Positions 4,192 to 52,287 of a DNA stretch of 64,000 nucleotides are shown piece by piece (the first letter of the stretch is position 1; each line of letters begins with the position of its first letter). The notes beneath the pieces are model-generated. The model was given only the letters and a program-made list of their open reading frames with translations, was not told the origin of the DNA and ran no database searches. The translations under genes and the position numbers were made by a program. Source of the stretch: a virus; the IMG/VR virus record IMGVR_UViG_3300020020_000028, positions 1-64,000 of that record; one strand, given 5' to 3'.

Positions 4192-5277
4192 TTACGTGAG
4201 TGTGCCGATGCAGATACCGCTATCGCCGTTGTAGTCCGAACGGACGCGCGGAATCATGATCGCCATGACCAGATTGTGGATGGTGAACCCATCCAGCGAG
4301 GTCCACGGAATGACCGTCGGAGGCTGTCCGACAACCATATCGATGACATCCGACGTCATCTGCACGAGTGCCACCTTGGTCGCTGGCAGCAAGTCTGCGA
4401 CGCGAACCGCCTGAAGACTCTCGATCTGAAGCAGACGCTGACGGATCGTGAGGCCCTGCGCGTTGTTTGTCGCGTTGTAATCGCTGTCGAGCGCATTGCC
4501 AACAACAGTCGGCACGTACAGACGGTACGGACCGAACTTCTTGTTGTTCTGCAAATCAGCGATCATCGCCTGTGTCTGCGAGAACACCGTTGCACCCACA
4601 GGAACCGTGGACCACGCCGCCGCAGTCAGCGTCTCTGCTTCGGCTCCGGGAGCGTTCAGAAGTCCCGGTGCGGAGTAACCCGCAACCTTGAGTTCCTGAC
4701 CGTCCAGAGTCGTCGCACCGTTGATCGCTGCGTCTTCGATAGCCTCGTTGACTGCACGAACACACTGCTTGACCATGCTCACATCGAGCGGAGTTCCGAC
4801 ACGCTGAGACGTCTTCAGCGTTCGAATATCGATCTCGAACCCGTCCGTCGTGAGATAAATGGGCAAACGGTTCGGCGTGACAATCGGCAGCTTGTTCTCA
4901 CCGCGAGCCGAGGGGCTCATGGTGCGCTGTGCAGCGCCGATCTTGTTGCTCGAATTCCACTCAAGCTGTGCGATGCTGAGTGGATCCGTGAGGTTGTACG
5001 TCAACCCCGCGGCCATGATGTCAGCAGCGAACGTCAGCCTCTGAAGACCAACTTCCACCACCGCACGATCAATCGCGACCTGTGCCTTGTCCTGCATCGG
5101 AGCAAGCGCACGGAACTCGTTTTCGACCGCTGCCATCATGCGATAGCCGGGACGCCGCATCGCGGGTACCGACCATCCACCAACCTCCTGAAGTGCTCGC
5201 ATGACCACGTTGGTCAACGGGCTATTACCCTGCCAGTTCGAATCCGAACCGGCCATGAATCTCATTTCCTTTGACAT
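4192..5277 (-). CDS. Major capsid protein (HK97 fold, linocin/encapsulin-like subtype)
   Basis: 361 aa with strong RBS and codon bias; LPI...F.IDIRTL, GLLNAP, FGPYRLYV and IPRVRSD motifs; follows protease and decoration genes. Confidence 0.85.
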   Translation of the reverse strand: MSKEMRFMAGSDSNWQGNSPLTNVVMRALQEVGGWSVPAMRRPGYRMMAAVENEFRALAPMQDKAQVAIDRAVVEVGLQRLTFAADIMAAGLTYNLTDPLSIAQLEWNSSNKIGAAQRTMSPSARGENKLPIVTPNRLPIYLTTDGFEIDIRTLKTSQRVGTPLDVSMVKQCVRAVNEAIEDAAINGATTLDGQELKVAGYSAPGLLNAPGAEAETLTAAAWSTVPVGATVFSQTQAMIADLQNNKKFGPYRLYVPTVVGNALDSDYNATNNAQGLTIRQRLLQIESLQAVRVADLLPATKVALVQMTSDVIDMVVGQPPTVIPWTSLDGFTIHNLVMAIMIPRVRSDYNGDSGICIGTLT

Positions 5278-5331: not shown

Positions 5332-5769
5332 TTAGAGGGCCTCGACGCGGATGCGCGTCAATGCGGCCGTTGCCGTCTTGTTTTCGAGTGCGCTGAAGAG
5401 AGCCACGGTGGCGCTCAGCTTCAACTGTCCGAGCGTTCCCAGCGAACCAAGCAGATCGCCTGCTTCAACCGCCGATCCCGATGCGATGAACATCCATGCG
5501 TGTGCGCCTTTGTGAAGGATCGAAACCTCCATCAAGTCACCCGCCGCATAGACATCACCGACACCTTTGTTGAGCATCGCCTGATCCGTCGCGACTGCCG
5601 GAGGACCGGCAATGTCAGCGGCAGCGAGCTTCCAGCGGATGATTCCGCCGACGTTATCACGCGCAACGAGCGCGCCGGGGTAGATCTCTGCCGCAGCAGC
5701 GAGATCCCCGATCTGGGTGCGTGAGCCACCCAAGTACACCGTGTTCGGGTTGTTTCTGGTGATCGACAT
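5332..5769 (-). CDS. Capsid decoration/cement protein
   Basis: 145-aa Ala/Gly-rich protein (AAAEIYPGALV...Y.AGD...AGDLL) between the scaffold and major capsid genes. Confidence 0.7.
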   Translation of the reverse strand: MSITRNNPNTVYLGGSRTQIGDLAAAAEIYPGALVARDNVGGIIRWKLAAADIAGPPAVATDQAMLNKGVGDVYAAGDLMEVSILHKGAHAWMFIASGSAVEAGDLLGSLGTLGQLKLSATVALFSALENKTATAALTRIRVEAL

Positions 5770-5859: not shown

Positions 5860-7320
5860 TTAGTTGACCGTCTTCGACTGGAGTGCCTTCAGAGGCTCTG
5901 CGTACGGATTCGGAGGCGTGAAATCATCCTGCTTCACAGATGCGTGGCGTTCCTGAGGAATGCCACGTCCGCTGAAATCAGGAATCTCGACACGAGCGTA
6001 CGCCGCCAACTGCTTCAGTGCAGGCGTATTCATCGCCTTCAGTTCCTCTTCGGTATTCGCTCCGAGATCCTTCAACTGCGAAATGAGCGAACCGCGAAGA
6101 GCATCCTCTTCCGCCTTGTGGTGTTCGAGCAGCGTCTTGAAGAACGGTGGCGCCTTCGCCAACCAGTCCTCTTCGGACGGTGCCTGCTCTGCGGTCTTGA
6201 GACGCTCCTCAGCGACCTTTAGACGCGCATTGGTGTTCGTCAATTCGGTTTCGAGCTTGCTCGTGTTACGCTCGGCCGACTTACGCGCGTCCGACGCCGC
6301 TCGAAACTCTTCGAGTCGTGAGTCGCCGCAGGCTTCGAGCATTCCCTCGTCGCCGTCCTTGAACCCGCTGTACCGGTCAGTGACCAGTTCAGCGATCAAC
6401 TCTGCTCTCGTGCTCTTTTCCATTTTCCTGTCTCCTTGTTTGCAGCCGCAACCAGCGGCTTTCAGTTGCGGCTTAGCTGCCGCTGTCCTGCCCGAACCCG
6501 GTATCGTAGAACTATGACACCCGCACTCGGACGGCGCGGATATAGACGCCATCCGGATCTTCCCATTCCCATTACACGCTTCGCAGGGATTGCCTTTCAG
6601 ATTCCCCGACCCCTTGCACATCGGACAATCTTTCTTTTTCTTCACTCCACTTCCAACCTGTGCGCCGGGAACCATCGGAGCGAGAGTTCGAAGAAGATCA
6701 TGGACGTCATCGACGCACTCTAATTCCATTCGATCCGATAACATCCTCATCGATGCTGCGCGATGCGATCCACATCCCATCTCAATGGAACACGCACCTC
6801 GACCACCCGGAAGAAACGCCAGATGATCACCAACGACTTCCTTCCATGATGCTGTGTACTTCTTACCGTTGAATTCTCCAGGTTTATCATCCGTGACCAC
6901 GAACGCGCCTACAGACACTTCTTCCGATTCTCCTGAGAGCAATCGCTCGTACATCTCAGGGTGCAATTCCTTTGCACGCCTAGAATCGATCCACGCCTCG
7001 CAGAGCAACTTCTTCCCCTGCACACGAGGATTGAACACGAGTCCGATGCCGCTCTCCGCAAGAATGTCGGGACTATTCGCTGAACACTGCCGTCCATTCT
7101 TCTTCGGATGATAAAGTGTTGCGGGCTTCCTATCCCATGTCCTCGCATACTTCTCCAATGTGGACAGAGGCACAAATTCTGGTGTCTCGGCATTCACCGC
7201 ATGAATGACGCCTTCCATCAGTGCGACTACAGGTACCACGAGGTACGGTCGCCCGTCGTATGTGTCCATACGCACGGATCCTGTCGCGCCTCGAAGATGT
7301 AACGTTCTGATAGAAGACAT
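5860..7320 (-). CDS. Prohead protease (DUF2213-like) fused to scaffold, with CxxCxGxG zinc finger
   Basis: P.TLYHP, EVSVG and DHLAFLPGGRGACS motifs; CPMCKGSG/CEACNGNG; coiled-coil C-terminus. Confidence 0.8.
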   Translation of the reverse strand: MSSIRTLHLRGATGSVRMDTYDGRPYLVVPVVALMEGVIHAVNAETPEFVPLSTLEKYARTWDRKPATLYHPKKNGRQCSANSPDILAESGIGLVFNPRVQGKKLLCEAWIDSRRAKELHPEMYERLLSGESEEVSVGAFVVTDDKPGEFNGKKYTASWKEVVGDHLAFLPGGRGACSIEMGCGSHRAASMRMLSDRMELECVDDVHDLLRTLAPMVPGAQVGSGVKKKKDCPMCKGSGNLKGNPCEACNGNGKIRMASISAPSECGCHSSTIPGSGRTAAAKPQLKAAGCGCKQGDRKMEKSTRAELIAELVTDRYSGFKDGDEGMLEACGDSRLEEFRAASDARKSAERNTSKLETELTNTNARLKVAEERLKTAEQAPSEEDWLAKAPPFFKTLLEHHKAEEDALRGSLISQLKDLGANTEEELKAMNTPALKQLAAYARVEIPDFSGRGIPQERHASVKQDDFTPPNPYAEPLKALQSKTVN

Positions 7321-9298: not shown

Positions 9299-9445
9299 TT
9301 ATCGGACTAACCCGATTGCCGCTACGAGAGCGGCCAATCCGATAGCAATAAGACGATTCCATGTCGGTGAGGTATGCTGCCATGCAGCAACGACCAAAAC
9401 GACAAATGAAAAAACGAAAAGTATGTTCGGCATCATGTTAGGCAT
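9299..9445 (-). CDS. 48-aa two-TM protein (holin-like)
   Basis: Hand translation: MPNMMPNILFVFSFVVLVVAAWQHTSPTWNRLIAIGLAALVAAIGLVR. The start overlaps the MuF stop. Confidence 0.6.
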   Translation of the reverse strand: MPNMMPNILFVFSFVVLVVAAWQHTSPTWNRLIAIGLAALVAAIGLVR

Positions 9446-10482
9446 CAAACGATCCCTTCTGAACATCGACAAGATACATGGGCTGGCGGACCTTCAAAGG
9501 CTTCGCCCTCATCGCTGATGTAAGCCTGACCTAATTTCGCCCGCTTACCTTCGAGGCCCTCACAGATCGGACAGACTTTTTCATCCCCAACGACGATCCA
9601 CTCTCGCTTTTCGTCGCCGTTTAAAAGTCCTGCCTCGACTGCCTGTTCCCACGCCTCGCGCTGTCCTTCATGAACAGCGATCATCGGTTCGTTCCTAGCA
9701 ATCAATTTCGCTCGATCACTATCTCCGACCGCTTCAAGAATTTCATCGAGGTGTTCGTCCCAATCACCTGTCTCAAGAAATTCTGCCGTCGCGTTACTGA
9801 TGCGTTCACGGCTCGTCTCTGTGATATTCGTGATGAGTTCGGCTGCGTGCTGGTCAGCCCAGTCAATCGCAGCCTGTCGTTTCACGTCGAAATCGAAGTA
9901 GATCTTCGGTTGATCTGATCCCTTCTTTGCCGTTCGAAATTCTTCAGCAGATCGCAGTTGCTGTTGCAACATCTTCGCAGCGACCTTCCCACCTTCGAGA
10001 TAGATCGTCTTCAATACTTGAGGCAACGAGTCTTGAAGTTCTTCTCTCAAGACTTCTAGCGATTTATCGATTGACTGACGATCACCGGAGACAAGGACGC
10101 GACGTGCAGCCGAGAACGCATACCGAAGAACGATTTCGAGCTTCGGTGCAAACTTGTCAGCCGTTTCGTGAATGGCTGTTTCTTTGCGACGTGAGGCTGT
10201 GCGTGGTTCTTCTTCATCCGACATCCCATCCGTGATGATTAAGATGTCTTCAGCCTTCTTCAACGCCTCAACAAGTACCTCGTACTGCTCTCTCACCAGT
10301 GCTGTAGGCTGCACGCTCGCTAATTCAGCACGCAAATTATCAAGATCCTCGGTAACACCGATGGAGACGAACCGGCGAATCGTTGGGGTCTGATTCAGCG
10401 CCCAAGACGAAAAATCTCGCATGCCTCCAATAGAGGCAAACTCCTCTAGCACGCCAGTGGTATCCGCCAGCGAGTAACTCAC
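9445..10482 (-). CDS. Phage head morphogenesis / minor capsid protein (MuF, SPP1 gp7 family)
   Basis: RAKLIARNE, KREWIVVGDEKVCPICEGLEG and PPAHVSCRC motifs. Confidence 0.9.
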   Translation of the reverse strand: MSYSLADTTGVLEEFASIGGMRDFSSWALNQTPTIRRFVSIGVTEDLDNLRAELASVQPTALVREQYEVLVEALKKAEDILIITDGMSDEEEPRTASRRKETAIHETADKFAPKLEIVLRYAFSAARRVLVSGDRQSIDKSLEVLREELQDSLPQVLKTIYLEGGKVAAKMLQQQLRSAEEFRTAKKGSDQPKIYFDFDVKRQAAIDWADQHAAELITNITETSRERISNATAEFLETGDWDEHLDEILEAVGDSDRAKLIARNEPMIAVHEGQREAWEQAVEAGLLNGDEKREWIVVGDEKVCPICEGLEGKRAKLGQAYISDEGEAFEGPPAHVSCRCSEGIV

Positions 10483-11516
10483 TGTGCGAGCAACTCCTTC
10501 AAGTGCGTCGAGTCCTTCACTGGTGTCATAGCCCCTAACCGAAACGATCCGGCGCCCTTCGCAAAGTACACCTTGTGTCCGGAAAAGCCTTTGCTCTTGA
10601 ACACATCCCGATCATCGAGGACCACGGTATGCACAGCGGCTTTATTCAGCCGCGCCCACTTTTCTTTCTTCTCTCGCGCGGCGGTTCGCACCCAAATCTT
10701 GTCGTTGGTGTTATTCACCATCGTCTTGACTTCGATGCCGACCTTTTTGCCATCGATCTCCGTGATCACATCGACTGGCGCATTGCCCTCCGTGCCCATT
10801 CCACCCACCATCTGAAGGACCTTGGCCTCGTTCCGTTCCGCGTGCCTCTGGACACGGGCTCCGGCTGGCTTGAAGGCCCTCAGGGCACGGGCAGACTGCT
10901 CAGACCGGCCAACCCCTTGGCTGCTGCCTCCGGGGTTCCCACGGCCACCCACACCCCCGGCATGGCCGAAGTTCCCTGAGCCGGGACCTCCGAGAGTCTT
11001 CAATTTTCTCTTCATCCCCTCGATCAACTTGCGACCACCTGATGTCCACTCTTGCTGCTCGAAGTTGATGTCGTAACGCTTGTCCGCCTCTTTCAAAAGT
11101 TTTGTCCCGAGCCCCTGTCGTTGTGCGTCAGGTGAGACAAAGACGTTGACGTTACCTTTTTTCTCGAACGGATGAATGTCTTGCGGATAGTGATAGAGAA
11201 TCGCTTGAAGTTTTCCATCCTCGCCACGATGCGTCAGGATATCCACCTTCTTTGCAGGTTCTGTGACCGATCTACCACTCGCCAACATGACTTTTCTTGC
11301 CGGTTCAACTTCTTCTGTCTGCGCCGTCAGTCCCGGCTTGCCTTTCACCGGAAACTGACTGGCTTGTGACGCGTAATCAAAATTCGCCGGGGCATCACGC
11401 TTCGGATCTGTCTTAACCTTCGAGATTTTGGAGGCAAACCCCGCCTCTGTCCATCGACCACGCTCGTCGCGCGGCTGATTGGAGTCGAATCCTAACTCTC
11501 GAAGTACTTGACTCAC
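10479..11516 (-). CDS. Tagged polyprotein: GNAT acetyltransferase + PD-(D/E)xK nuclease-like domain
   Basis: VFVSPDAQRQGLGTKLL (acetyl-CoA motif A); PVDVI...GIEVK. Likely start is GTG 11516, overlapping the upstream TGA. Confidence 0.7.
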   Translation of the reverse strand: MSQVLRELGFDSNQPRDERGRWTEAGFASKISKVKTDPKRDAPANFDYASQASQFPVKGKPGLTAQTEEVEPARKVMLASGRSVTEPAKKVDILTHRGEDGKLQAILYHYPQDIHPFEKKGNVNVFVSPDAQRQGLGTKLLKEADKRYDINFEQQEWTSGGRKLIEGMKRKLKTLGGPGSGNFGHAGGVGGRGNPGGSSQGVGRSEQSARALRAFKPAGARVQRHAERNEAKVLQMVGGMGTEGNAPVDVITEIDGKKVGIEVKTMVNNTNDKIWVRTAAREKKEKWARLNKAAVHTVVLDDRDVFKSKGFSGHKVYFAKGAGSFRLGAMTPVKDSTHLKELLAQ

Positions 11517-13492
11517 GACTTCTGCAACCCCGTCTTCGCGCCCTGCTTCTTCACACCCGCATTCTGCGCGATCCCAAATCGCTGTGACCACGTGTTCGCG
11601 ATGTGCAACACCTCAGAGATCGGCGCATTGACACGAACCACGTTCATCGTCGATGTTCCCAACCGATTGTCCTGTGAATCAATTCCAACAACCGCGGCCC
11701 AACGGTGATGCCCATCCACCACATAGTTATCTTTGGAAATGAAAATCGGATTCTTCGCGGGATCAAATTCTTTCGCTTCGTAATCCAACATCATCTTGCC
11801 GACAGTCACACCCTTCATCTCCCGCTGCGAGGCGCGAAGTCCAGACGCTGGCACCACTTCATCGGTTGTCTTCATACCGATGCCTTGCAAATACGTCTTA
11901 AACGCTGCCGCGCCGTCTACTTCCGTCGGATCCCACGGCGTGCGTGGAAGTTTATCGGCTTCTGATCCAGGAACTGGCTTGCCTCCAAGTTGCGGCATGA
12001 AGAGTCGTGGAATACCCTCTGGATATTCCGCTGTGCGAAGGCTCTCTGCGCAAAACAAGTTCGTACCCTTCACGGTCACGTTACAGAGATCAAAATCCTT
12101 CGCTGCTTCGCCAGCACTTTTCGCAGCAATCGCATCAGCCGCCAACTGGTGGATCAAGGTATAGGCTTGTTCAGTCGTCTCGACCTCGACGACCTTACCT
12201 TGCAACACCAGTGAGCAACCCTCTTCGACCGTTTTTACTTTGATCGGGATCGGGCGACCAGTCTTTGGATTGGTTTCCTGCTTCCACGTGATGCCCGTAT
12301 GTTCCCATCCTCCGGGAGATTTCCACCCATCAGTAGATGATCCACCGACCTGACCGGGGCGCCCTCCGTGTCCGAAGTTCCCTGAGCCGGGACCACCGAG
12401 TGTTTTCGGTTCCGCGACCAGTCCTTTTCGGATCTTCGCCTTCGCAACCGCTAACCGTATGGCACTCAGTGCGCGAGGTTTCTTCAAGGCATCAACAACA
12501 TACTCGCCATATTTCTGTGGCCAATCCGCTCCGGTATGAACCGCCGCCGCTTCCGAAATAAGGGTCGTCATCTGCTCTGGCGTGGTATCTGCGAGCTTGT
12601 CACTCACAAACTTTCCATACCATCCAGCCCAATCCTTGTCCGGGACGCCTGTTTCTTTCTCGAACGCTGTGTGCGCGACCTTCGCTTCTGCCATCAGCGC
12701 ACCAACAGTTTGTGACGCGGCTTTCGCATCGGACAAATCTAGCGCGACTTTCGATTCCTCACTAGAAGATCCGCCGACCTGACCGGGACGGCCCTCGTGA
12801 CCGTGATTGCCGCTGCCGGGACCACCAAGCGCCTTGAACTTCGCATCAACCTGTTCTTTAAAGATTTCCCAGTTGCCCGTCTTGAGTGCAGCCTCAAGCA
12901 TTGCTTCTACGACCTGTCCTAGTTCGGGATCAGAGAGAAGCGCCGCTATCTTATTGATGGCATCTTGTAGTTTCTCGTCTTTTTCCGCTCCAGCCACAAA
13001 CCTCACCGGAGGAGGCAACGCTCGTCCTCCATACATTTTCTTGTCTTGTCTGGTAGGACCATCGGTACGCATCGCTTCTAGTTCTGCCTTCAACCCCTTC
13101 GGAGTTATGCTGCTCAACGTGTTCCACAGTTCCTGACCGATCTCCGGATCACTCAAAGCCTTATCAAGAGATTCATAAATCTCAAACAGCTTCCGCCGTT
13201 GTTCTGGAGTGCCTTCCGTGCGCTTCGATGACCACGTGATGTAAGTGGGGTCAAACTCTAATTTGCTATGTTCAAGTGGAAAGCCCGCTTCATCACGACC
13301 AGGAATAATGTATCGAGCACCGATTTTTCCTAAGCCTCCTGAAGACGCAGGACCACCATCCGTCCATTGACCATCCTTGTCGCGAGGTTGGTCTGGATTA
13401 AACTTCAGTTCACGCGGCTCTTTGTAGATAACCGTGCCGTCTTTCAGCGTGATCACGAGTGTAGGAAGACTCAATGTGCTATCCATCCCCAC
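11513..13492 (-). CDS. Tagged polyprotein with C-terminal ParB/Srx-like domain
   Basis: LRASQRE...PIFISKDNYVVDGHHRWAA; three internal tag motifs. Confidence 0.7.
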   Translation of the reverse strand: MGMDSTLSLPTLVITLKDGTVIYKEPRELKFNPDQPRDKDGQWTDGGPASSGGLGKIGARYIIPGRDEAGFPLEHSKLEFDPTYITWSSKRTEGTPEQRRKLFEIYESLDKALSDPEIGQELWNTLSSITPKGLKAELEAMRTDGPTRQDKKMYGGRALPPPVRFVAGAEKDEKLQDAINKIAALLSDPELGQVVEAMLEAALKTGNWEIFKEQVDAKFKALGGPGSGNHGHEGRPGQVGGSSSEESKVALDLSDAKAASQTVGALMAEAKVAHTAFEKETGVPDKDWAGWYGKFVSDKLADTTPEQMTTLISEAAAVHTGADWPQKYGEYVVDALKKPRALSAIRLAVAKAKIRKGLVAEPKTLGGPGSGNFGHGGRPGQVGGSSTDGWKSPGGWEHTGITWKQETNPKTGRPIPIKVKTVEEGCSLVLQGKVVEVETTEQAYTLIHQLAADAIAAKSAGEAAKDFDLCNVTVKGTNLFCAESLRTAEYPEGIPRLFMPQLGGKPVPGSEADKLPRTPWDPTEVDGAAAFKTYLQGIGMKTTDEVVPASGLRASQREMKGVTVGKMMLDYEAKEFDPAKNPIFISKDNYVVDGHHRWAAVVGIDSQDNRLGTSTMNVVRVNAPISEVLHIANTWSQRFGIAQNAGVKKQGAKTGLQKS

Positions 13493-14181
13493 TGCTTAAA
13501 CACGTCATGCACAAAATCTGTCTCCAGAAGACGTGAGATCGGATTACTGAGCTTCGCGACTTCCATGACCGGCTTGCTGTTAAACAATTCCGTAAACGCG
13601 TCCGTGAAAAGTTGTTCTGGCTTCAACGGCGAGGATCGCAGAATCGTATCGTTCAGACCCTTACTCGCCTTTTGCCACTCCGGGCTCTCAATTCTCGCTG
13701 TTAGCGTGCGTGCGAACTGGCTGTATACCCCGTCTTCAGTCGTGAACACCTTGTTATGTTCGCGATCTACGAGACTCGTAGCCGCGCCGTCCATATCAAA
13801 CCCGTAATGCTTCAACAGAAAATCATCAATCTTCTTTGAAGACACACCCTGAGGGCTGACATCGAACGTCGCTTTCGATTCTTTACGAATCTTCGCGGGA
13901 ATGCTGTTCAGCAGTTTCGCCGCAGCTTCTTTGCTCTCCCCTTCGACCTTCGGACCACCGTCTCGATTACCGTGGGTCTTCTGATCGTGCTCGCCGTGTA
14001 ACGCCACGAAGCCCAATGTGCGCAACGTGTCTTGGCACTCTCCGCACAGCGTTTCCAGCGATTCTGTTTTTTCTAGGCGCGCGACCAGTTCAACCCGAGC
14101 CTTTTTCATCAGGCCACCGGGGTCTGGTCTATTGGGATCGCCTTTCAGCAACCACGCTTTGGTTGTTGGTGAGAGATTCAT
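13471..14181 (-). CDS. Tagged head-associated protein, function unknown
   Basis: HGEHDQKTHGNRDG tag shared with the 15188-18217 gene. Confidence 0.6.
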   Translation of the reverse strand: MNLSPTTKAWLLKGDPNRPDPGGLMKKARVELVARLEKTESLETLCGECQDTLRTLGFVALHGEHDQKTHGNRDGGPKVEGESKEAAAKLLNSIPAKIRKESKATFDVSPQGVSSKKIDDFLLKHYGFDMDGAATSLVDREHNKVFTTEDGVYSQFARTLTARIESPEWQKASKGLNDTILRSSPLKPEQLFTDAFTELFNSKPVMEVAKLSNPISRLLETDFVHDVFKQWGWIAH

Positions 14182-15191
14182 GGCGCCATATCTCTCTTCA
14201 ATAAGTTCTTGATCTCGTCACGCACTTCATGTAGTTCCTTTGGCAATTCGTGATCCATCACCACCGCAGTGAAAATCTCGGCTGTCGCTTCTTGAGGTCC
14301 ACCAGTCGCTGCATAGCCGCTGATTTTCTGATCTACAAAATCATCGAGCTTATCGTCAGGGACGTTTTTTAGAACAGCACCGATGACCGCCCGAGTTAAT
14401 CCATCACCAGTCATCGCATCGGCAAGATGTCCCGCTTCATGGATTACAATGCCGCGATAGACTTCACGTTCGAACTCTTCCTTCGAGGTTGCGATTTCCG
14501 ACGCACGTCGAGACGCAATCGTGAAATTATCATCAGAAGGGTTACCAGTCGTGTTCCGCGCCTCATCAGAGCCGTTGATGAACATCATTCCCTTAACCGT
14601 GTTGCTATACGGATCCCTCGCGAATGATGCGGACGCGACTTGTGGGTCATACTGCGCATACACCAGAGGCACATTCTTCTGCAAAAACTCATGTAGCGCA
14701 GGTGCCTCTTTTTTCAAATCGTCAAGCCCCAACGCAATCCCTTCCATCGCTTCTTTCGACAAAGGATTCGTTGCCGTTTTCAATTTCATATAATCACGAA
14801 ACAACTCCGGCGTCTGATACACAGGAATCGTGTTGTAACCCTTGTCAGCGAATGCCTTCTGAAAGGCTTCAGACGGTCCAATGTGTTCAGTAGAGGGTGT
14901 CGCTACTGCCGCAGGCTCCTTATTGAAATCTATCTTAAAATTATGAACCGAGCCTTTCGGCGTCGATCCTCCGGGGTTATCCTTGCCTCCGACGCCGCCT
15001 TGATGACCGAAGTTACCGGAGCCGGGACCGCCGAGTGCACGTTGTTTACTAACAGTATAAAACGCCGTACTCCCATCAGCGAATAGCACACGCGCGAGCG
15101 TCGCGTTCTCTGGTTCGACAGGCTTCCACGATGCGTTGATGTACAACACAACCCCGCTACGACCGTCGATGGTGATCGGTTGCGGGATCAT
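14178..15191 (-). CDS. Tagged protein with zincin metallopeptidase domain
   Basis: IHEAGH...ISGYAAT...EATAEIF. Confidence 0.75.
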   Translation of the reverse strand: MIPQPITIDGRSGVVLYINASWKPVEPENATLARVLFADGSTAFYTVSKQRALGGPGSGNFGHQGGVGGKDNPGGSTPKGSVHNFKIDFNKEPAAVATPSTEHIGPSEAFQKAFADKGYNTIPVYQTPELFRDYMKLKTATNPLSKEAMEGIALGLDDLKKEAPALHEFLQKNVPLVYAQYDPQVASASFARDPYSNTVKGMMFINGSDEARNTTGNPSDDNFTIASRRASEIATSKEEFEREVYRGIVIHEAGHLADAMTGDGLTRAVIGAVLKNVPDDKLDDFVDQKISGYAATGGPQEATAEIFTAVVMDHELPKELHEVRDEIKNLLKRDMAP

Positions 15192-18100
15192 GCGTTCGGC
15201 TTCCTTCCGATGCGTGCTTTTACCTTGTTAAGATTAGCAATCTCTCTCAGGTCATCAGCAAACAACCGCCATGACATCTTCGCACTATCACCAGCACGTA
15301 CCGATAATGGAGTCACCCTCAGTCGCGTCATCTCCGCAAGTGTTTCATTGATCGCTCGTTCAAACCCATTAGGCTGATTGACGATATCAGACTGCCAATA
15401 CGCTTTAGAGTAATCGGAGATACCGTCGTCCTTCTGCAAGACGTTCATCTTCTGAACATAACGAGACTGACCGGGCTGCTGATCGTTCTCCGTTTCCATG
15501 TACGTGTCACCAACATGTCGATAGAACATTGCCGACACTGGCCAACGTTTATGAACCTCTTCCTGCATCTCGGGCCGAACATAGCCACTCACACGGAAGA
15601 GACGCTTGTGTTCCTCTGGGGGCAGATTATCAATCTCTTTATGTTCCGCGAGTTGCGCCTCACGCGCGGCGTCAAATATCGCATGTGAGATCTCATGCGT
15701 CACGATCCCATTCGTGACGGCCATACGCTCATCGTATGAGTTACGAGCGTTGATCTCGATCACACCAGTGCGTGGATTAAAGTGGCCTGCTTCTCGAAAT
15801 TCAAGATCACCAACTTTGAATGCAGTCGGTTCTTTATCCACGACGTTGATAATTGCCGGAGGAATCCCCATTTCCTCAGCGAGTGTTTCCGCGCGTCGTG
15901 CAACGATGTCTTTATAGCGAACAGGAAAACCCGGTGGCAACGTTTCTACAGATGCGCCTGAAGGAGCACTGCCCCCGACTTCACCGGGTCTACCAGCGTG
16001 ACCGAAGTTCCCTGAACCTTCGCCTCCGAGCGCCTTGAGATCTTCGACCATCGCAAACGCGACAAACACGCGATGAAACTGCCCAAGCACCTTGAGCCAC
16101 GGCTTTTCCTCAACCCACGAGAAGGGCTGATCGCGCATCCACGCGGCCTTGATCCACTCAGGCTTGATGTCACCTGCGAACTGAAACGCGTCTTTCGGAT
16201 TCGTGATGTAGGAATCGGGGCGCAGTGTCGCCCAGATCTCTTCGGGGATTTCTACTTGCAGAACGACGGGCTTGACTGCGAAGTCCGAACCGGCACTCCC
16301 GTGGTTCTCAGCCGCACTCTTGGCGTAGTCTTTCGCCTGCTGAAGATCCGTCGCGACATAGACGTTGCCTGCGACACTACCGGGATGCGCCTTGCCCGCG
16401 AATTTCGCTCGAATGCCATCCTTGAGGATGGAGTTCAGCGCACCGGATTCGGTGCCGTGGAAGGCTGTCCACTGGCCACGTTCATCGCGTGGCTGGCTCG
16501 GATCGAAAGCTAACGTCCTTACCCTCTTCAACTGCGAGGGAGACTTAATCAGGACAGTCGCTGGAATCTCACTCTGATTAAGTTCATCCAACGATTGAAT
16601 CGCATCGTACCCGTGTCGAGCTAACACCTCACGGACAGCCGGAATGTACGCTACGTCTAACGGGTTACTACCCCCGTACGGAGAAAAGTCTGAGACGCTA
16701 GGTACCTCTAGCCACCATCCCGGCCCATCCTGTCCTGAGGGCGTGAATGTGTACTTGACCCCCGCTTCATCGAGGAGTGGCAACATCCGTTTGATGTCTT
16801 CTTCGTTATGAAGACTAAACGGCTTCGAGACAGAGATCGCAATCTCTTGAAGGCTCCCTTCTCTTCCACTTCTCTCGTTCTCTTCTTTATACCAACGCGC
16901 CGCTTCGGGGTCTGGAGTAGTGAAAATCGGCAGTCGTAGCGTCTCAGGGATCGCTCCACCAATATAATGAGGTTTCGTCGTATCGAACCGTGTGTCGCCA
17001 CCTCCGGTCCATCGACCATTCTCATCCCGAGGTTGACTCGGATCGAAACCTAGCCAGCGAGGATCTTCTTCGCGGCTTCGATCTCCATCGCTGTAGGTTC
17101 TCTGCCAGTCAATTTCCGCGCGAGCGCGATGAGTTGATCGAGTGTGGGAGCCTGTGTTTCGGATCCCGTAACGATAAGCTCCGGCTGCTTTGACATGAGG
17201 GTACTCAATGGTAACAGACTTGCCGTTCTTCAAATCGAAATACGCCAACTGCTTGGCTGCACGCCCAAGCCTCTCGGCTTCCGCTGCGTCTTGCACAATC
17301 GTGCTGACATCCAGATAGGCCATGCCATCTTCGGGGTTATGCCAACCCCCGAGATAGTTGCCTGACTGACTCAGAAGATCGATGTTCTTGACCGTGTACT
17401 CCGCAAGTGCCACGACGGAGACATCCTTCGCCGGAAGAATTTTCTCGCGATCCTTGTGGAGACTCAGCGCAAAGCCCGTCTTCGGTTGTTCACCCGTCGC
17501 AGTGTGGTACGTGAATCCGCCGTCGGCTTGATGAATCGCTTCGAGGATGCCGCTTGGTGCGGGGAGAGAACCGCCCACCATGCCGGGGCGTCCAGCGTGG
17601 CCGAAGTTTCCTGAGCCTGCGCCACCGAGTGTGCTTAACGTCTTGTTCACCAACACGACGCTGTACAACACACGAGTGTTCTGCGCAAGTGCCCGCCAAT
17701 CAATGCGATGAAAAAATTCTTTAGAAGGAGTACCGACACCAGTAATCCACTCAGGTGGAATGGTGCCCTTTACCGCGAACGCATCGCCTTGATCCTCAGA
17801 TCGTACGTTCGTAGCCCACCAGTCCCGAGGGATCTCAATTCTTAAAATGACGGGTTCTGTGTCATCGTTGACCTCTGCGGCATACTTCGCGTACGTATTC
17901 GCACTTGTTAGACTCTCCGTGAAGTACACAGACGCTGGGCGACCACCCATGTCCGCGCCTTGCTGACGTGCGTATTCATCGGCTCCTGTGCCGTGGCCTT
18001 TGAAGGGAGAGAGTCCGAATTGTTTGATCGAGGCTAGTGCCTCTGATTGCGTGCCGTGAAAAACAAGGTGTGGCCCACGGTATCCAACAGTTACACCATC

Positions 18101-18217
18101 ACGATTACCATGAGTCTTCTGATCGTGCTCACCATGCAACGTACGCACGCGCGCCATCTGACTCGCGATAGTCAGTAGCCGTGCCGCACGCGCGGGAGCC
18201 AGAGGGAAGCTAAGCAT
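15188..18217 (-). CDS. Five-module tagged polyprotein: ART/Tpt1-like, possible SAM-lyase-like, ART-PolyVal-like, ART/Tpt1-like, zincin peptidase
   Basis: Two FHGT...SI...G...VY...A..YA...(I/V)L.(I/V)EIP...I.PEWI domains; GGFT...LGGW...YLDVS...Q.A.FDL; FTT...A..Y...GYDAI...SPSQLK; HEISH...ISDYS...NETLAE. Confidence 0.7.
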   Translation of the reverse strand: MLSFPLAPARAARLLTIASQMARVRTLHGEHDQKTHGNRDGVTVGYRGPHLVFHGTQSEALASIKQFGLSPFKGHGTGADEYARQQGADMGGRPASVYFTESLTSANTYAKYAAEVNDDTEPVILRIEIPRDWWATNVRSEDQGDAFAVKGTIPPEWITGVGTPSKEFFHRIDWRALAQNTRVLYSVVLVNKTLSTLGGAGSGNFGHAGRPGMVGGSLPAPSGILEAIHQADGGFTYHTATGEQPKTGFALSLHKDREKILPAKDVSVVALAEYTVKNIDLLSQSGNYLGGWHNPEDGMAYLDVSTIVQDAAEAERLGRAAKQLAYFDLKNGKSVTIEYPHVKAAGAYRYGIRNTGSHTRSTHRARAEIDWQRTYSDGDRSREEDPRWLGFDPSQPRDENGRWTGGGDTRFDTTKPHYIGGAIPETLRLPIFTTPDPEAARWYKEENERSGREGSLQEIAISVSKPFSLHNEEDIKRMLPLLDEAGVKYTFTPSGQDGPGWWLEVPSVSDFSPYGGSNPLDVAYIPAVREVLARHGYDAIQSLDELNQSEIPATVLIKSPSQLKRVRTLAFDPSQPRDERGQWTAFHGTESGALNSILKDGIRAKFAGKAHPGSVAGNVYVATDLQQAKDYAKSAAENHGSAGSDFAVKPVVLQVEIPEEIWATLRPDSYITNPKDAFQFAGDIKPEWIKAAWMRDQPFSWVEEKPWLKVLGQFHRVFVAFAMVEDLKALGGEGSGNFGHAGRPGEVGGSAPSGASVETLPPGFPVRYKDIVARRAETLAEEMGIPPAIINVVDKEPTAFKVGDLEFREAGHFNPRTGVIEINARNSYDERMAVTNGIVTHEISHAIFDAAREAQLAEHKEIDNLPPEEHKRLFRVSGYVRPEMQEEVHKRWPVSAMFYRHVGDTYMETENDQQPGQSRYVQKMNVLQKDDGISDYSKAYWQSDIVNQPNGFERAINETLAEMTRLRVTPLSVRAGDSAKMSWRLFADDLREIANLNKVKARIGRKPNA

Positions 18218-21200
18218 TACCTTTCTTCGCTTCTTCTATCAGCCACTTTTCTGCTTCTTCTTGTGTCGTATGTCCAAACCCTGTGTCATAAGGTCCACGC
18301 TTCGCATGCCACATAAAGTTATAGCCGCGAGGTCCGCCGATCTGTGGATCCTGCTGACGACGACGTTCGATACGACCAACAGACTTCCCGTCTACCTTTA
18401 ACTGATAGTTAGCTTTCTTACCTTCCGAAGTTCCTACCCGCTCTACTCCCCCATGATGATTCCCGTGGCTCTTCTGATCATGCTCGGCGTGTAGCCCGAC
18501 AATCTTATGCACGACATCCGTCGCCCCGACCTCGATAGCCGTGGTCAACACGCGAAGCAATTCGATATCTTCAGCGGCTTCTAACCCGCGAGGATCCACT
18601 ATCGCAAACTTTCCAGTGTCTTCTCGTCCAGTGATGCGCAGATCCACGTCCTCACCCTCAGCAGGCGAGAAGCGAATCGTGCCAACCGATGCCGTCATAC
18701 CCTCAAGCGCACTCGATCCCACGTAGCGAACACCGTGACCCTGCTTCAAGTAGGCGACGGTCGCATGCGGCGTGTAGTTCGGATGCGTGGTGGTGACTTC
18801 GAGGTTGTTCGTCAGACGCTCATTCAGATCGACGAGATCCTGTGAGATAACCTCGACATACAACACGTCGTAGCCGTCACCTTCGAAGATACCCGTCTTA
18901 CCGAGGGTGAACCGAATCGGACCCACATACGTGGCAAGCACCTTCCTGACGCTGGAGACATCATTCGTGTGCAAACCATACTTGACAGTGATATGTGCGT
19001 CGTCTTCGAGCCCACCCTCTTCTACGCAGAGATCGAACGCGGGAATCGAGCGTCCGAACGCCAACAATGCCTCTGCGATTACTGGTGGAAGTTGAATCTG
19101 TGTTGAGGAGAGCTTGTAGGTCTTTCCGGCCATCGCTGCGCGATTCTTGGCAATCTTCTTGTACGCGTCCAGTGTAGCGCCATAGAAGAAAGTCTTCAGT
19201 CTCGGATCGCCCTCTTCGGCCTTACCATACAGATCGAGTTGCTCTTCAAGAAAGTCGATCTTCGAGCCCTTGAATCCATCACGCTTGGCCTTCGTGTACC
19301 CCTCGTCAAGCGCGGCGCGTTCATCGTCCTTCATCCCCTCGATAATGCTATCAAGAGGATCTTTCTCTTCCTTGGGCTTCGCTTCTTTCTTCTTCGAACC
19401 CGAGGGCTTCTTCTTCGACGCGGGAACAGACTTCGGCTTTGCTTCTTTCTTCGGCTCGTCCTTCGCTTCCTTTTTCGGTGCCTCGTCGTACTTCCCGGTC
19501 ACGATAGGATGATTCGCAGGCACCCACTGCCCAGTCTTCTCGTTCTTGAACCCATCAATCGTGCCGCTCTTTTCGGGCTTCCATTCGGGACCGAGTTTCG
19601 GCTTACTCTCATTCACGACAGCCTTGCGTAGCGCCTGATAACTGGCAACCGTCTTCTTATCGAACTTGACGACAGGATCGCCGCCCTTCGCAATGCTCAA
19701 TGCGAGTTGCTGACGGAGGAATTCGAGTTGACTGCCATTGAATCCGGCCTTGACCGCACGCGCATGGCCTTCTTCAACAGCCTTCGTCTCCTTCTCGTTC
19801 AACTTGAGACGCAAGTTGACCAGTCCGGCCTTAAACGAACGCTGTGTCGCACGCTTCGCGGTCCCCGCAGGCTTGTCTGCCGATCCACTTCCACTTCCAA
19901 ACTTCCCGTCATCAGCACGAGGATGTTCGTGTTCCTCGAACTTGGAGAGCGCCGTGCGCAATTCGTCAATCGTGTCTTCGGCTGCTCGCAACTCCTCATC
20001 ATCGATATCGAAGTCGAGGTCCGCGTCTTCAGCAGGAACATCGGCAGGCTGCATTTCGGCCATTGCTTCCTGCGCTTGCTTGGCTTTGGCCTCAGCCCGC
20101 TCATCGATTTCCGCACGCTGTTCTTCTGACAACGGCGCGAAGCCCAACGACCGATCTCTGATCTCTGCATCCGTGAACACCACGTCACCATACGTGGAGT
20201 TGACCGTCGCCATCCCAGTCGCGGTCTGAATCTTTTCCTGCTCCGTAAGCACCTGAATGTGGGGCCAGAGCACGTCATACTCGTCTGGTCCCTTGGACGG
20301 CTCCGGCAGATACCCGTACTTGATCAATCGATCTGCGAGTTGCCTGACAATGTAGGGACCAGCGTACTGAAGCTGTCTACCAACAATCTGGTCACGGAAA
20401 TTCTCCCGATCCTGGCTGCTTGCCAGTTCGCCCATCTCGGAGCCCGTGAGGATGCGCTTCGGGATCGCCTTCGCACCAGCAATCTGCGTGATGATCGTGT
20501 CCGCTGGCCCATCGAAATTCGCGACATCCGAACCAAGGGGCGTGACCTTGACACCACGTGTGCGAATCCATCTCGTGATCTGATGTTTGTAATCTTCGGC
20601 CTGTGCCTTCAACGACTCGACAGCCGCAGCGTTCTCTGTGGGAGGCAACGTCAGATCTTTATCGATGTCGATGTGCATGCCCTGATTCGCACGCAGCCAA
20701 AAGGCTTCAGCGCCACCACCTGTCACCTTGCGCAAATCGATCAACAGATTCCAGACACGCTGCAACGCAGGCTGACCGAACACATCATCATCCAATAAAC
20801 CTTCAGCGACATGGATGATACGTGAGTAATGCACCGGACGTGTGAAGTTCGGAGTCGCGAGATCCGTGCGTCGAATCGTGTACGTCTTGGGTAGACCAAA
20901 ACGTTCTGACTTCGGATCCTCGTCATACTCGAAGATCGAACAATCAGAGCCATAATCTGAGGTGCGATAATTCTCTCGCGTTGAGCCACCCGGCCCACCA
21001 CCACCGAGAAACGGCATCAAATAGAGAAGTTTATCTGGATTCGTAGTCTTGCGTAGTTCGGTGGACAAGTCTTGACCGTCACCGAGTAAGAGCACACCAA
21101 AGGTCGAGAGTCGTGAGAGTTTATCTACGCGAAGAAGTTTGGCCCCGATCTGGTGTTTCTTATCCAGCTTGTTCCATGCGTTCTCGAACGGGGTTTCGAC

Positions 21201-21542
21201 TTCCGGATCTTCGTCCTCAATCAACTCGAAGGCAGGCTGACCTCTCCACGTAGCGTCCGGCATCACGTCTACGACGCGGCCTGCGATGCCTCCGCGCATG
21301 TACTCATCACGATATTCCTGAATCGTGATCGTCGCAGGATAGCCGAGGATAATGTACTCGTCGCGATTACCGTTGAACGTGATGCCGGATTGCTGTGCGA
21401 ATCGCGCGCGTGCGAGAAGCACACTGTTCTCCAGTACGCGAATCTCAGAGGCCAACGTACGTAGCTGTGGAGGCACTGCCTCTGGTGGAGGGAAGCGAGA
21501 CGTATCGGGCGCTGCGCCGTTACCGTTCGTTTCTTCGCTCAT
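18210..21542 (-). CDS. Portal protein (DUF1073-like) with long C-terminal extension containing a 2H phosphoesterase (Acb1-like) domain
   Basis: GIAGRVVD..PDATWR, VHYSRIIH, IAGAKAIPKRILTG.E.GELAS.QD portal motifs; HITV and HATV 2H motifs in the tail. Confidence 0.85.
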   Translation of the reverse strand: MSEETNGNGAAPDTSRFPPPEAVPPQLRTLASEIRVLENSVLLARARFAQQSGITFNGNRDEYIILGYPATITIQEYRDEYMRGGIAGRVVDVMPDATWRGQPAFELIEDEDPEVETPFENAWNKLDKKHQIGAKLLRVDKLSRLSTFGVLLLGDGQDLSTELRKTTNPDKLLYLMPFLGGGGPGGSTRENYRTSDYGSDCSIFEYDEDPKSERFGLPKTYTIRRTDLATPNFTRPVHYSRIIHVAEGLLDDDVFGQPALQRVWNLLIDLRKVTGGGAEAFWLRANQGMHIDIDKDLTLPPTENAAAVESLKAQAEDYKHQITRWIRTRGVKVTPLGSDVANFDGPADTIITQIAGAKAIPKRILTGSEMGELASSQDRENFRDQIVGRQLQYAGPYIVRQLADRLIKYGYLPEPSKGPDEYDVLWPHIQVLTEQEKIQTATGMATVNSTYGDVVFTDAEIRDRSLGFAPLSEEQRAEIDERAEAKAKQAQEAMAEMQPADVPAEDADLDFDIDDEELRAAEDTIDELRTALSKFEEHEHPRADDGKFGSGSGSADKPAGTAKRATQRSFKAGLVNLRLKLNEKETKAVEEGHARAVKAGFNGSQLEFLRQQLALSIAKGGDPVVKFDKKTVASYQALRKAVVNESKPKLGPEWKPEKSGTIDGFKNEKTGQWVPANHPIVTGKYDEAPKKEAKDEPKKEAKPKSVPASKKKPSGSKKKEAKPKEEKDPLDSIIEGMKDDERAALDEGYTKAKRDGFKGSKIDFLEEQLDLYGKAEEGDPRLKTFFYGATLDAYKKIAKNRAAMAGKTYKLSSTQIQLPPVIAEALLAFGRSIPAFDLCVEEGGLEDDAHITVKYGLHTNDVSSVRKVLATYVGPIRFTLGKTGIFEGDGYDVLYVEVISQDLVDLNERLTNNLEVTTTHPNYTPHATVAYLKQGHGVRYVGSSALEGMTASVGTIRFSPAEGEDVDLRITGREDTGKFAIVDPRGLEAAEDIELLRVLTTAIEVGATDVVHKIVGLHAEHDQKSHGNHHGGVERVGTSEGKKANYQLKVDGKSVGRIERRRQQDPQIGGPRGYNFMWHAKRGPYDTGFGHTTQEEAEKWLIEEAKKGNA

Positions 21543-21757
21543 TGTAGTTCAAGTCTTGACACGTAGAAGGCGAGCACCGCAGAACGCCACCATCCGTAAA
21601 ACCATCGCTTGTTGCGATAGACACGCACAAACGTTCCAAGGTCCGCGCGATACCACGGACGCAACGCGATGTGCGCTTCGAGATTCTCGCCGGGACGATT
21701 CGCTCTTACGACTTGCATTTTTCCAAACAAAAGTGCGGGTAGACTTTTGCGTCGCAC
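21539..21757 (-). CDS. Possible small hypothetical protein
   Basis: ORF overlapping the portal start by 4 nt; no recognisable motif. Confidence 0.3.
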   Translation of the reverse strand: MRRKSLPALLFGKMQVVRANRPGENLEAHIALRPWYRADLGTFVRVYRNKRWFYGWWRSAVLAFYVSRLELQ

Positions 21758-21768
21758 TGTGATACAAT
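21740..21768 (+). promoter_or_regulatory. Sigma70-like promoter for the antisense-oriented gene at 21814
   Basis: TAGACT-N17-TACAAT with extended TG. Confidence 0.6.
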
Positions 21769-21813
21769 GTATGTATCGATAATTATGTCGATGCTCTTTG
21801 ACAACGAGGGATT

Positions 21814-22050
21814 ATGGCAAAACGTGTGAAGAAATCCGCTCTTCCAGTTCCGGTGAAGACGGACTCTCGAATCTGTTTCGCAATCCAGTACTTCACGACC
21901 GAAGCTGACGCAGACAGGTTCGCAGAAAACGTTCGTGAAAAAAATATCACCTACAATGGTGGCTTTTTTCACGGCATGGCGTGCGGCAGAGACAAAGGGT
22001 GGGATTACGTTGATCCAGTTCTTGGTCAACTGTACGCAGTAACAAATTAA
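21814..22050 (+). CDS. Moron-like small hypothetical gene inserted opposite the packaging operon
   Basis: GAGG RBS, own promoter and own terminator. Confidence 0.7.
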   Translation: MAKRVKKSALPVPVKTDSRICFAIQYFTTEADADRFAENVREKNITYNGGFFHGMACGRDKGWDYVDPVLGQLYAVTN

Positions 22051-22058
22051 AGTGGATA

Positions 22059-22087
22059 GGGCGGGGATGAACCCCCGCCCTTTTTTT
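22059..22087 (+). terminator. Rho-independent terminator
   Basis: GGGCGGGG-atgaac-CCCCGCCC followed by T7. Confidence 0.8.
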
Positions 22088-22088
22088 G

Positions 22089-22238
22089 TTAGTTCGGTGT
22101 CCCCGGATGATCCGGATCGGGCTGCGGTTCCTTCGGCACGGGCATCTTCGAGGTGTCCGGCTGAAGCGGTTCTTTCCTGTCCGATGGATCGTGGTCCGGG
22201 CGTGGTGAACGTTCCGGCTCGGTCTGCGGATCTCCCAT
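22089..22238 (-). CDS. 49-aa Pro/acidic disordered peptide
   Basis: Hand translation MGDPQTEPERSPRPDHDP...GTPN with AAGGAGG RBS. Confidence 0.55.
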   Translation of the reverse strand: MGDPQTEPERSPRPDHDPSDRKEPLQPDTSKMPVPKEPQPDPDHPGTPN

Positions 22239-22247
22239 TGACCCTCC

Positions 22248-22379
22248 TTAACGACTTGGTGGCTTCGACGGTGTTGAAGGAGCCGACGGTGTTGACTTCG
22301 GCAGTGGATTCGATGATGGCGCAGGCGTCGATGATGGCGCAGGCGTCGGCACTGACGGTGTTGATCCCGGTCCCGGCAT
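22248..22379 (-). CDS. 43-aa Pro/Ser/Thr-rich disordered peptide
   Basis: Hand translation MPGPGSTPSVPTPAPSSTPAPSS...KPPSR with GAGGAGG RBS. Confidence 0.55.
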   Translation of the reverse strand: MPGPGSTPSVPTPAPSSTPAPSSNPLPKSTPSAPSTPSKPPSR

Positions 22380-22397
22380 GTGACCTCCTCACAGATC

Positions 22398-24044: not shown

Positions 24045-24727
24045 CAGATAACCTCCTCAACGGAGACGGCCTCGATGGTCAATTGCTCGGTTTTCTTGCG
24101 AAGATCTTCAGGAGAGAGTTCCGAGAGTCGCTGTGCAGCAATCTCAATCGGTCCGCCACCAGCCCCGGTTAGCTCAAGACGATCTGCGAAAGCCTTGATA
24201 CCCACGTGACGACCCATGAGTTTCAGTGCGCCGGGTTTGTCCCAGAGCTTAAACTCAACCTCGTACGTGATGGTGATGGCCCCGCTCGGATCTTCTTTCA
24301 CGATCTTGCGGCGTTTCACAGACTGAATTGCGCGCATCGCGTTTGGAGGCGCACCTTCTGCGAGAATCAAGTTGCCGTCATCGTCTACTTTGTAGTGCTC
24401 AACACTCGCATTCGCGAGTGTGGCGACTTCTTCGAGTACCGAATCCGCTGTCATATTGACGCGGATGGCTCGCATTTCTTTGGCTTGTTCTACAGCCGCC
24501 GCAATCCTAGAGTCTCCTAGAAGCCTAACAGCCGTGACGCTCGCGCCGACTTTTGGATAACCAGCACGAATCGCCGCACGTGTGCCGTTAAAGTCAACAA
24601 TATACTCACGAATGAACGCGAGTTGACGGGTGTTGAGCTTCGAAAGATCGACGACTTCTAGAGGGTTTTCTGGAGGGAATGGCGCGATGCCTGACGAATC
24701 TGCTTGATTCTGGTCTAGGCTGTCCAT
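24044..24727 (-). CDS. terS: Terminase small subunit
   Basis: LNTRQLAFIREYIVDFNGTRAAIRAGY HTH; KLWDK..ALK..GRH.G; ELTGAGGGPI. Confidence 0.92.
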   Translation of the reverse strand: MDSLDQNQADSSGIAPFPPENPLEVVDLSKLNTRQLAFIREYIVDFNGTRAAIRAGYPKVGASVTAVRLLGDSRIAAAVEQAKEMRAIRVNMTADSVLEEVATLANASVEHYKVDDDGNLILAEGAPPNAMRAIQSVKRRKIVKEDPSGAITITYEVEFKLWDKPGALKLMGRHVGIKAFADRLELTGAGGGPIEIAAQRLSELSPEDLRKKTEQLTIEAVSVEEVI

Positions 24728-51696: not shown

Positions 51697-51709
51697 GTTT
51701 TACAATTTC

Positions 51710-52071: not shown

Positions 52072-52075
52072 GTCA

Positions 52076-52165: not shown

Positions 52166-52170
52166 AAGTT

Positions 52171-52242: not shown

Positions 52243-52287
52243 CTCTCGGGGCTCTGCTCAAGGAGGTAGCATCCCCAATGATTTTGA

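Follow-up and report, generated by a model that had tools for sequence, protein, structure and literature searches.

Conserved peptides heading the modules of predicted capsid-cargo polyproteins, behind a candidate protease code, in an uncultured phage

Between the portal and MuF genes of an uncultured phage, a series of genes encodes multidomain proteins in which short conserved peptides recur. What these peptides do, and whether the phage's own head protease cuts next to them, is the question raised by this locus. The window, meaning the whole stretch of 64,000 nucleotides that was analysed, is a portion of a 73,960-bp linear virus record from IMG/VR (IMGVR_UViG_3300020020_000028), which is about 70% complete. 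The original prediction, made from the letters of the window, had described 14 such tags in three families and had proposed that a DUF2213-like prohead protease cuts before them. Our six-frame scan of the window with regular expressions reproduced the tags: six GG tags (pattern GG-x-GSGN-(F/H)-GH..GGS), four FD tags (x-F-(D/N)-..-QPRD-..-G-x-W) with one further degenerate FD tag, and three HG tags (H(G/A)EHDQK(T/S)HGN). All 14 lie on the minus strand between 10479 and 21542 and are confined to the coding frames of six genes, A to F; the only extra match in the window was a bare QPRD in a stop-ridden frame. The scan also returned the predicted count of (R/K)-x-L before 10 of the 14 tags, and L stands before 13 of them.

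Three peptide families at the starts of cargo modules

The tags were located as follows.

17567..17626, minus: GG tag 1, gene B, preceded by STL
15968..16027, minus: GG tag 2, gene B, preceded by KAL
14964..15032, minus: GG tag 3, gene C, long variant, preceded by RAL
12767..12826, minus: GG tag 4, gene E, preceded by KAL
12338..12397, minus: GG tag 5, gene E, preceded by KTL
10923..10991, minus: GG tag 6, gene F, long variant, preceded by KTL
17009..17050, minus: FD tag, gene B, preceded by RWL plus one residue
16469..16510, minus: FD tag, gene B, preceded by RTL plus one residue
13364..13405, minus: FD tag, gene E, preceded by REL plus one residue
11451..11492, minus: FD tag, gene F, preceded by REL plus one residue
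19899..19940, minus: degenerate FD-like tag FEEHEHPRADDGKF (HPRADDGKF), gene A after the portal domain, behind LRTAL
18104..18136, minus: HG tag, gene B, preceded by RTL
13966..13998, minus: HG tag, gene D, preceded by VAL
18459..18491, minus: HG tag, gene A, preceded by VGL

The six genes that carry them are listed below; overlaps of a few bases join successive genes from A to the MuF gene.

18210..21542, minus: gene A, 1110 amino acids (aa), portal (aa 1-~540) plus cargo, from Pfam and PHROGs matches
15188..18217, minus: gene B, Pfam PARP match (4e-7)
14178..15191, minus: gene C, from its translation
13471..14181, minus: gene D, a 60-aa leader module, an HG tag and a module without an assigned family
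11513..13492, minus: gene E, match to phrog_2859 (6e-18)
10479..11591, minus: gene F, GNAT match (Acetyltransf_7, 9e-6)

In gene A, the portal is followed by the FD-like tag, a repeat-containing module, a 2H phosphoesterase, the HG tag and an 80-aa C-terminal module (Pfam Phage_portal_3, 1e-22; 2_5_RNA_ligase2, 5e-9; phrog_146 portal, 3e-49). Gene B starts with a 27-aa leader, after which come an HG tag, an ART-like module, GG, module B2, FD, module B3, FD, a PARP-like ART, GG and a zincin-like module with the motif HEISH. Gene C consists of a 52-aa N-terminal mini-module, a GG tag and a zincin-like module (HEAGH). The order in gene E is leader, FD, helical module, GG, helical module, GG and a ParB-like module with a DGHHR motif, and in gene F it is short leader, FD, GNAT, GG and a module without an assigned family. 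The six genes together hold about fifteen modules. Unrelated effector domains are thus found in single polypeptides, such as portal and 2H in A, and the modules match different partners in other phages.

When codons for identical residues were compared among the six GG copies, positions 1 and 2 were 91-96% identical and third positions 45-49%. The scrambled third positions indicate that selection keeps the peptide and not the DNA, and on this ground a DNA-repeat or gene-conversion origin of the tags was rejected.

A search with gene B gave 109 metagenomic proteins as its relatives. Tags were present in 105 of these, often at 80-94% identity across just 2-4% of the query, and the domains of the 109 proteins vary widely (ART, MuF, zeta toxin, ParB, portal, 2H, NUDIX, RelA/SpoT and topoisomerase). 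With one exception, no two tags in these relatives are closer than 118 aa, the last tag lies at least 90 residues from the C-terminus, and the position of the first tag peaks at aa 22-35. One module of B was also found in other phages as a stand-alone protein of 189-235 aa with an N-terminal tag.

In a breakpoint test, 148 tag proteins were compared all against all by BLAST without masking, with 60 or more residues counted as an extension. Of the alignments spanning a tag, 11,330 were confined to the tag, 4,594 extended downstream only, 1,973 upstream only and 883 to both sides. These counts indicate that neighbours are reshuffled at the tags and that a tag more often travels with the module behind it. 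AlphaFold was run on residues 192-352 of B with nine homologues; the predicted local distance difference test score (pLDDT) was 31-36 for the tag and linker versus 80-95 for the module behind. The linker from tag to module varied among homologues from about 10 to 45 aa. As modelled, the tags would sit in disordered stretches that head the modules, outside the folds. Tag positions therefore coincide with module boundaries, by the BLAST breakpoints and by the AlphaFold model of one module. The prediction that each tag starts a new, unrelated module holds to this extent, with one correction: in gene A, no tag separates the repeat-containing module from the 2H phosphoesterase.

The GG, FD and HG tags appear to be interchangeable, as the same leader or module is paired with different tags in different phages. 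One leader family (P..AARLL) heads GG in 10 proteins, FD in one and HG in one, and the leader of gene D recurs in protein P0055, there ahead of a GG tag.

Outside the window, the GG consensus GG-x-GSGNFGH-A-GRPG-E-V-GGS was nearly invariant, with the N, the H and the glycines invariant. At E ≤ 1e-3, a 33-column GG profile matched the representatives of 5,610 clusters (50% identity), with 910 left at 1e-10 and 152 at 1e-30, and by this profile search there were up to 9-10 copies per protein. Searching IMG/VR by DNA pattern gave 108 stretches with GG, 50 with HG and more than 119 with FD, and the HG loci and FD loci elsewhere had no GG tags; the window is unusual in that all three families are mixed. 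Stand-alone small proteins elsewhere bear tags at aa 8-35. In record G015, proteins begin with M-GG-x-GSGNFGH (L051, 6063-6161 and 8460-8558), with stops just upstream and no leader, which indicates that an N-terminal header is a natural state and that the role of the header exceeds that of a cut site. MuF was encoded in 17 of 23 GG records and in five of five HG records tested, and clustering found no gene family common to all 14 genomes besides the portal/MuF/polyvalent cluster. No model in Pfam, NCBIfam or PHROGs describes the tags, and a literature search for the literal motifs found no paper on them. Among cultured phages, no tag was hit by megablast or tblastn, in searches whose low-complexity filter may hide tags.

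Residues before the tags and the head protease

Each junction has two layers, a near-invariant tag and three preceding residues that are fixed within a lineage and differ between lineages. Among 152 multi-tag proteins, the residue at position -1 agreed in 77% of the pairs within a protein versus 25% after shuffling (maximum 30%), and by this residue 48 proteins were of class L, 43 of class K, 20 of class N, eight of class D and seven of class A. R or K was present at -3 in 198 of 249 L/A tags. A second comparison came from the HG tags, which in 50 of 50 other loci stand behind (V/I/L/M)-x-K. In the window, all three stand behind L, as do its GG and FD tags. The 50 IMG/VR stretches L175-L224, from phages of roughly 60 kb, carry HG only, followed by N-W-A-(T/S)-G. 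Because HG is found behind L in the window but behind V-x-K elsewhere, the upstream code belongs to the phage and not to the tag. The window is especially informative here, since its three header families share a single upstream code, so that the putative cut site is separable from the header. A phage-specific code of this type would be the pattern expected of a trans-acting, lineage-specific enzyme.

The residues preceding the tags were then set against the protease family, and an association was seen, with exceptions. Records with a window-type (weak-scoring) DUF2213 protease had (R/K)x(L/A) before 55 tags and another L/A before 10. With canonical DUF2213 (E below 1e-35, seven records), D preceded 13 of 13 tags. 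Sixteen records without a DUF2213 match had a completeness of 79% or more; of their 46 tags, K preceded 19, N 15 and (R/K)x(L/A) only 2. Record G011 has L without R/K before its tags, and a Mu-type protease is encoded directly behind its cargo genes. In these records the upstream code tracks the protease family. The (R/K)-x-L/A residues of the original prediction are supported in so far as they behave as a lineage-specific protease code would; the invariant element is the tag itself, and (R/K)-x-L is one of at least four codes.

The protease of the window and the other head proteins that carry the same type of motif are given below.

5860..7320, minus: protease-scaffold fusion with the DUF2213-like prohead protease at aa 1-~195 (Pfam DUF2213, 9e-8; phrog_530 head maturation protease)
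4192..5277, minus: major capsid protein (Pfam DUF6260, 2e-17)
5095-5115, minus: candidate maturation site FRAL/APM in the capsid protein
5185-5202, minus: second RAL in the capsid protein
21447..21464, minus: LRTL/AS motif at the portal N-terminus
6673-6693, minus: LRTL/APM in the protease-scaffold, just after the protease domain
5938-5952, minus: ERHA/S in the protease-scaffold

The R-x-(L/A) sites that had been predicted in the capsid N-terminus, portal and scaffold are present; the capsid motif was conserved in 120 homologues, and the motif also occurs at the N-terminus of four related portals and near the C-terminus of three scaffolds. The N-terminal motif of the 120 capsid homologues is F-R(100%)-(A/T/S)-(L 80%/A 18%)-(A/G/S 99%)-P(100%). 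Portals of relatives have the motif at the same N-terminal position (LRTL/TS in G017, LRAA/TS in G019 and LRTL/ST in G021), and the C-terminal region of the scaffold contains RHA/S in the window, RVL/S in G017 and RAA/A in G019. Within the window, LRTLAPM of the protease-scaffold parallels FRALAPM of the capsid protein, where a rough chance expectation is about 0.02 such matches. These sites in capsid, portal and scaffold are candidate maturation sites.

The window protease is 53% identical to that of G019, and a search for related loci with the window protease found nothing. A literature search on DUF2213 gave nothing about specificity. Its closest cultured relative is from Brevundimonas phage vB_BpoS-StAshley (L344, ON529865.1; 40% identity), in which the head order is the same (terminase, portal, protease/scaffold, decoration, capsid). 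Following the protease domain, at aa ~228-257 (6550-6640), the protease-scaffold has a CxxCxGxG repeat that resembles a DnaJ-type zinc finger (matches to DnaJ and RtpA in NCBIfam, E ~2e-4 to 6e-3), which is unusual in a scaffold.

How the peptides might act

We consider it about an even chance (roughly 0.5) that the prohead protease cuts directly before each tag and frees modules headed by the tag. Genes A-F, between portal and MuF, would then encode capsid-interior cargo as polyproteins, which would probably be loaded into the procapsid via the portal fusion (A) or the conserved N-terminal leaders (B-F). The upstream (R/K)-x-(L/A) would be the recognition site of the phage's own DUF2213-like prohead protease, with the cut directly after it, and the same protease would probably cut the capsid protein, portal and scaffold after the same code. 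The first cut would remove the N-terminal leaders of B-F, and a GG, FD or HG header with its variable Gly/Ser linker would become the new N-terminus of each released module. If the protease cuts inside the procapsid, headers exposed by the cut cannot load the polyproteins. For loading, the portal fusion and leaders are therefore likelier than the earlier idea that exposed tags route the cargo for packaging. A freed header could serve retention or ejection, or act after entry; routing of the modules for ejection is pure conjecture. Cleavage, the responsible enzyme, the location in the virion and the role of the header are what we infer from these sequence comparisons.

Several observations weigh against this protease reading. 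A DUF2213-type protease is found in only about one third of the tag-bearing records. The Pfam models tried recognised no prohead protease in 9 of 13 complete tag-bearing records, which may reflect weak search sensitivity or genuine absence. Searches of tag-bearing genomes for ClpP, S49, S77 and S78 proteases were mostly empty, most genomes of the N and K classes yielded no recognisable protease, PHROGs annotated the head regions of these two classes too sparsely for one to be named, and no head protease was identified in five records of HG-only phages. The association of code and protease, which was counted without correction for shared ancestry, has exceptions in G040 (mixed) and G058 (N with a weak DUF2213 match). 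Concerning the shared motif, R-x-L has low information and, in the set examined, conservation extends over the whole capsid N-terminus, the relatives G017, G019 and G021 do not conserve LRTLAPM of the protease-scaffold, and the capsid RAL of G021 is DAL in StAshley. The cultured Brevundimonas relatives of the protease (40% identity), StAshley among them, share the head-gene order but have no cargo genes; in StAshley none lie between portal and protease. Finally, the cleavage model gives no reason for a header that hardly varies among phages whose head proteins are unrelated.

A partner of the header must be common to very different phages. It is possible, although we hold this only tentatively, that GG, FD and HG belong to a set of universal N-terminal address headers for capsid cargo, with a separate lineage-specific protease code upstream. 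Such headers would be read by something that very different tailed phages share, for instance MuF, the portal channel or the DNA in the capsid, and they would govern whether cargo is retained or ejected in order.

The tags could instead be docking peptides that stay uncut, with the intact polyproteins held in the capsid by the header and upstream residues binding portal, MuF, scaffold or DNA. Tags that are disordered linear motifs in the AlphaFold model, that occur close to the N-terminus of stand-alone small proteins and that co-occur with MuF in most records are compatible with docking, as is the GRPG core of the GG tag, which we take to resemble an AT-hook. However, a near-invariant header next to a lineage-specific triplet better fits an enzyme site beside a separate signal. 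The triplet is moreover shared with the capsid protein, portal and scaffold, and some proteins start directly at the tag. We therefore regard docking as unlikely, even though the N4 virion RNA polymerase is a case of a protein packaged uncut (PMC5512222).

Cutting by the cargo-borne zincin-like modules of B and C, with the prohead protease uninvolved, seems improbable to us. Two HExxH modules do lie within the array (HEISH in B, with a weak match to Pfam Zn_peptidase_2 at E 0.014, and HEAGH in C; MPTase-PolyVal was unmatched), and autoprocessing by a metallopeptidase domain has been proposed for polyvalent proteins (PMC5512222). However, iterated hidden Markov model searches with both modules found relatives in just 2 of 13 complete tag-bearing genomes, by which a zincin as the universal partner of the tags was rejected, and the residues before the tags follow the family of the prohead protease.

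Autonomous separation of the modules by the headers, through self-cleavage that depends on the Asn of N-F-G-H (cf. the NPTH motif of FlhB/EscU) or translational skipping, is very improbable: a header that is near-invariant among phages with unrelated head machinery points to an element that acts by itself or to a universal partner, and the Asn is among the invariant residues, but three unrelated tag sequences share one position, the residue before the tag is lineage-fixed, which an autonomous element does not need, and no bacterial precedent was found in the literature searched. Hardly any weight can be given to the idea that the tags are merely recombination joints or flexible linkers for shuffling, without processing or addressing, which would fit the breaks in similarity and the reshuffled modules, but not the scrambled third codon positions, by which DNA identity is not kept, nor the invariance over 20 residues that a plain linker need not have, nor tags that stand at the head of proteins with a single module, in some cases as the N-terminus itself.

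The surrounding locus, known systems and implications

On the minus strand, the genes are ordered small terminase, large terminase, portal fusion A, B-F, MuF, protease-scaffold, decoration protein and capsid protein, so that the cargo genes lie among head genes with a portal-terminase packaging system. Those not yet listed are:

24044-24727, minus: small terminase
22398-24044, minus: large terminase
9445..10482, minus: MuF-like head morphogenesis protein, stand-alone and untagged (Pfam Phage_Mu_F, 5.5e-10)
5332-5769, minus: decoration protein

The MuF protein has 345 aa and terminates with the MuF domain (aa 227-341), with no effector fused. A gap of 855 bp (21543-22397) separates the large terminase from the portal; its sole content is one odd-looking open reading frame of 232 aa (21706-22404), and an Rfam scan of the gap found no family. 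Just downstream of the capsid gene are two methyltransferase-like genes (674-3145), one of them of the CmcI/rhamnosyl O-methyltransferase type, and three tRNA genes were found by Rfam on the plus strand (51606-55214).

Among the cargo genes, A contains at aa ~560-845 (19008-19865) two copies of a helical repeat of ~26 residues, ..G(H/Y)..A...GF.GS...FL..QL.L, with a lysine-rich stretch between them; a Pfam scan of this portal extension gave no match. Module B2 (17054-17554) shows ~32-33% identity to parts of annotated internal virion proteins of the Synechococcus phages Syn5 (gp45) and S-CBP42, and fold searches with its confident AlphaFold model against the PDB (Foldseek, VIA-align) gave nothing clear (best E 0.16, Z 5.0). 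Gene C was without a match in a Pfam scan, and its leader shares homology with those of P0003 and of one G011 protein. The last module of gene E is 62% identical to a G019 module flanked by two GG tags; an AlphaFold model of E made without an alignment had a pLDDT of 36, too low for use. For gene F, start analysis indicates that the true start is likely the GTG at 11516 rather than 11591. This GTG overlaps the stop of E (GTGA) and leaves an 8-aa leader before the FD tag, which resembles the 8-11-residue leaders in record G004.

Several known systems resemble this locus in part. In T4, the internal proteins IPI-III and Alt have a short N-terminal capsid-targeting leader that is removed by the prohead protease gp21 at the capsid/scaffold consensus L/I-x-E. 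The window is similar in encoding a prohead protease in its head module and in the conserved N-terminal leaders by which its cargo would probably be loaded. T4 differs in having one leader per protein, another protease family and code, and no conserved peptide C-terminal of the cut, whereas the window has several modules per polypeptide, each with a near-universal header. In phiKZ, gp175 processes head and inner-body proteins at S/A/G-x-E; one morphogenetic protease with a three-residue code serves many head-interior proteins, as proposed for the window, but the code differs and there is no shared header. Herpesvirus assemblin (hydrophobic-x-A/S) and the adenovirus protease ((M/L/I)-x-G-G/x) are capsid-maturation proteases with a short P3/P1 code, which cleave ahead of a small residue within the particle; they belong to eukaryotic viruses. 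Polymorphic toxins have junction motifs (VENN, PT-TG, Rhs DPxGL), short conserved peptides that mark the start of the variable module and the place of recombination or cleavage; these are secreted bacterial proteins with one junction per protein and unrelated sequences.

Similar in content are the phage-type polyvalent proteins (Iyer, Burroughs, Anand, de Souza and Aravind 2017, PMC5512222), which have many effector domains per polypeptide and are predicted to be packaged and injected. Their domains include ART, 2H, GNAT, ParB-like and zincin, and they lie beside, or are fused to, portal and MuF; the window shares ART, 2H, GNAT and ParB-like modules in this setting, and its HEISH and HEAGH modules are zincin-like. 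The words 'linker' and 'glycine' are absent from the main text of that paper and no junction peptide is described, whereas the junctions of the window bear conserved headers behind a code of the protease lineage. A further comparison is with polymorphic toxins fused to MuF (Jamet et al. 2017, mentioned in PMC5512222), in which the MuF head protein carries the effectors to be delivered; the MuF of the window stands alone, and a MuF fusion was found only in the relative G019.

The tags of the original prediction are confirmed, and their reading as part of protease-processed capsid cargo, akin to polyvalent proteins, is partly supported; the header peptides were not found in the literature or family libraries searched. 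Proteins injected by phages include anti-defence enzymes, toxins and host-takeover factors, and they are hard to recognise by sequence. If the proposal is true, a header just after a protease code would mark injected cargo in metagenomes, with 5,610 protein clusters reached by the GG profile alone, and the injected proteome of thousands of uncultured phages would be predictable from sequence alone. The headers would define module boundaries for functional study and would provide a testable rule for the disassembly of polyvalent proteins. Cut code and header, added to any protein, could address it to a capsid and be a handle for loading foreign cargo.

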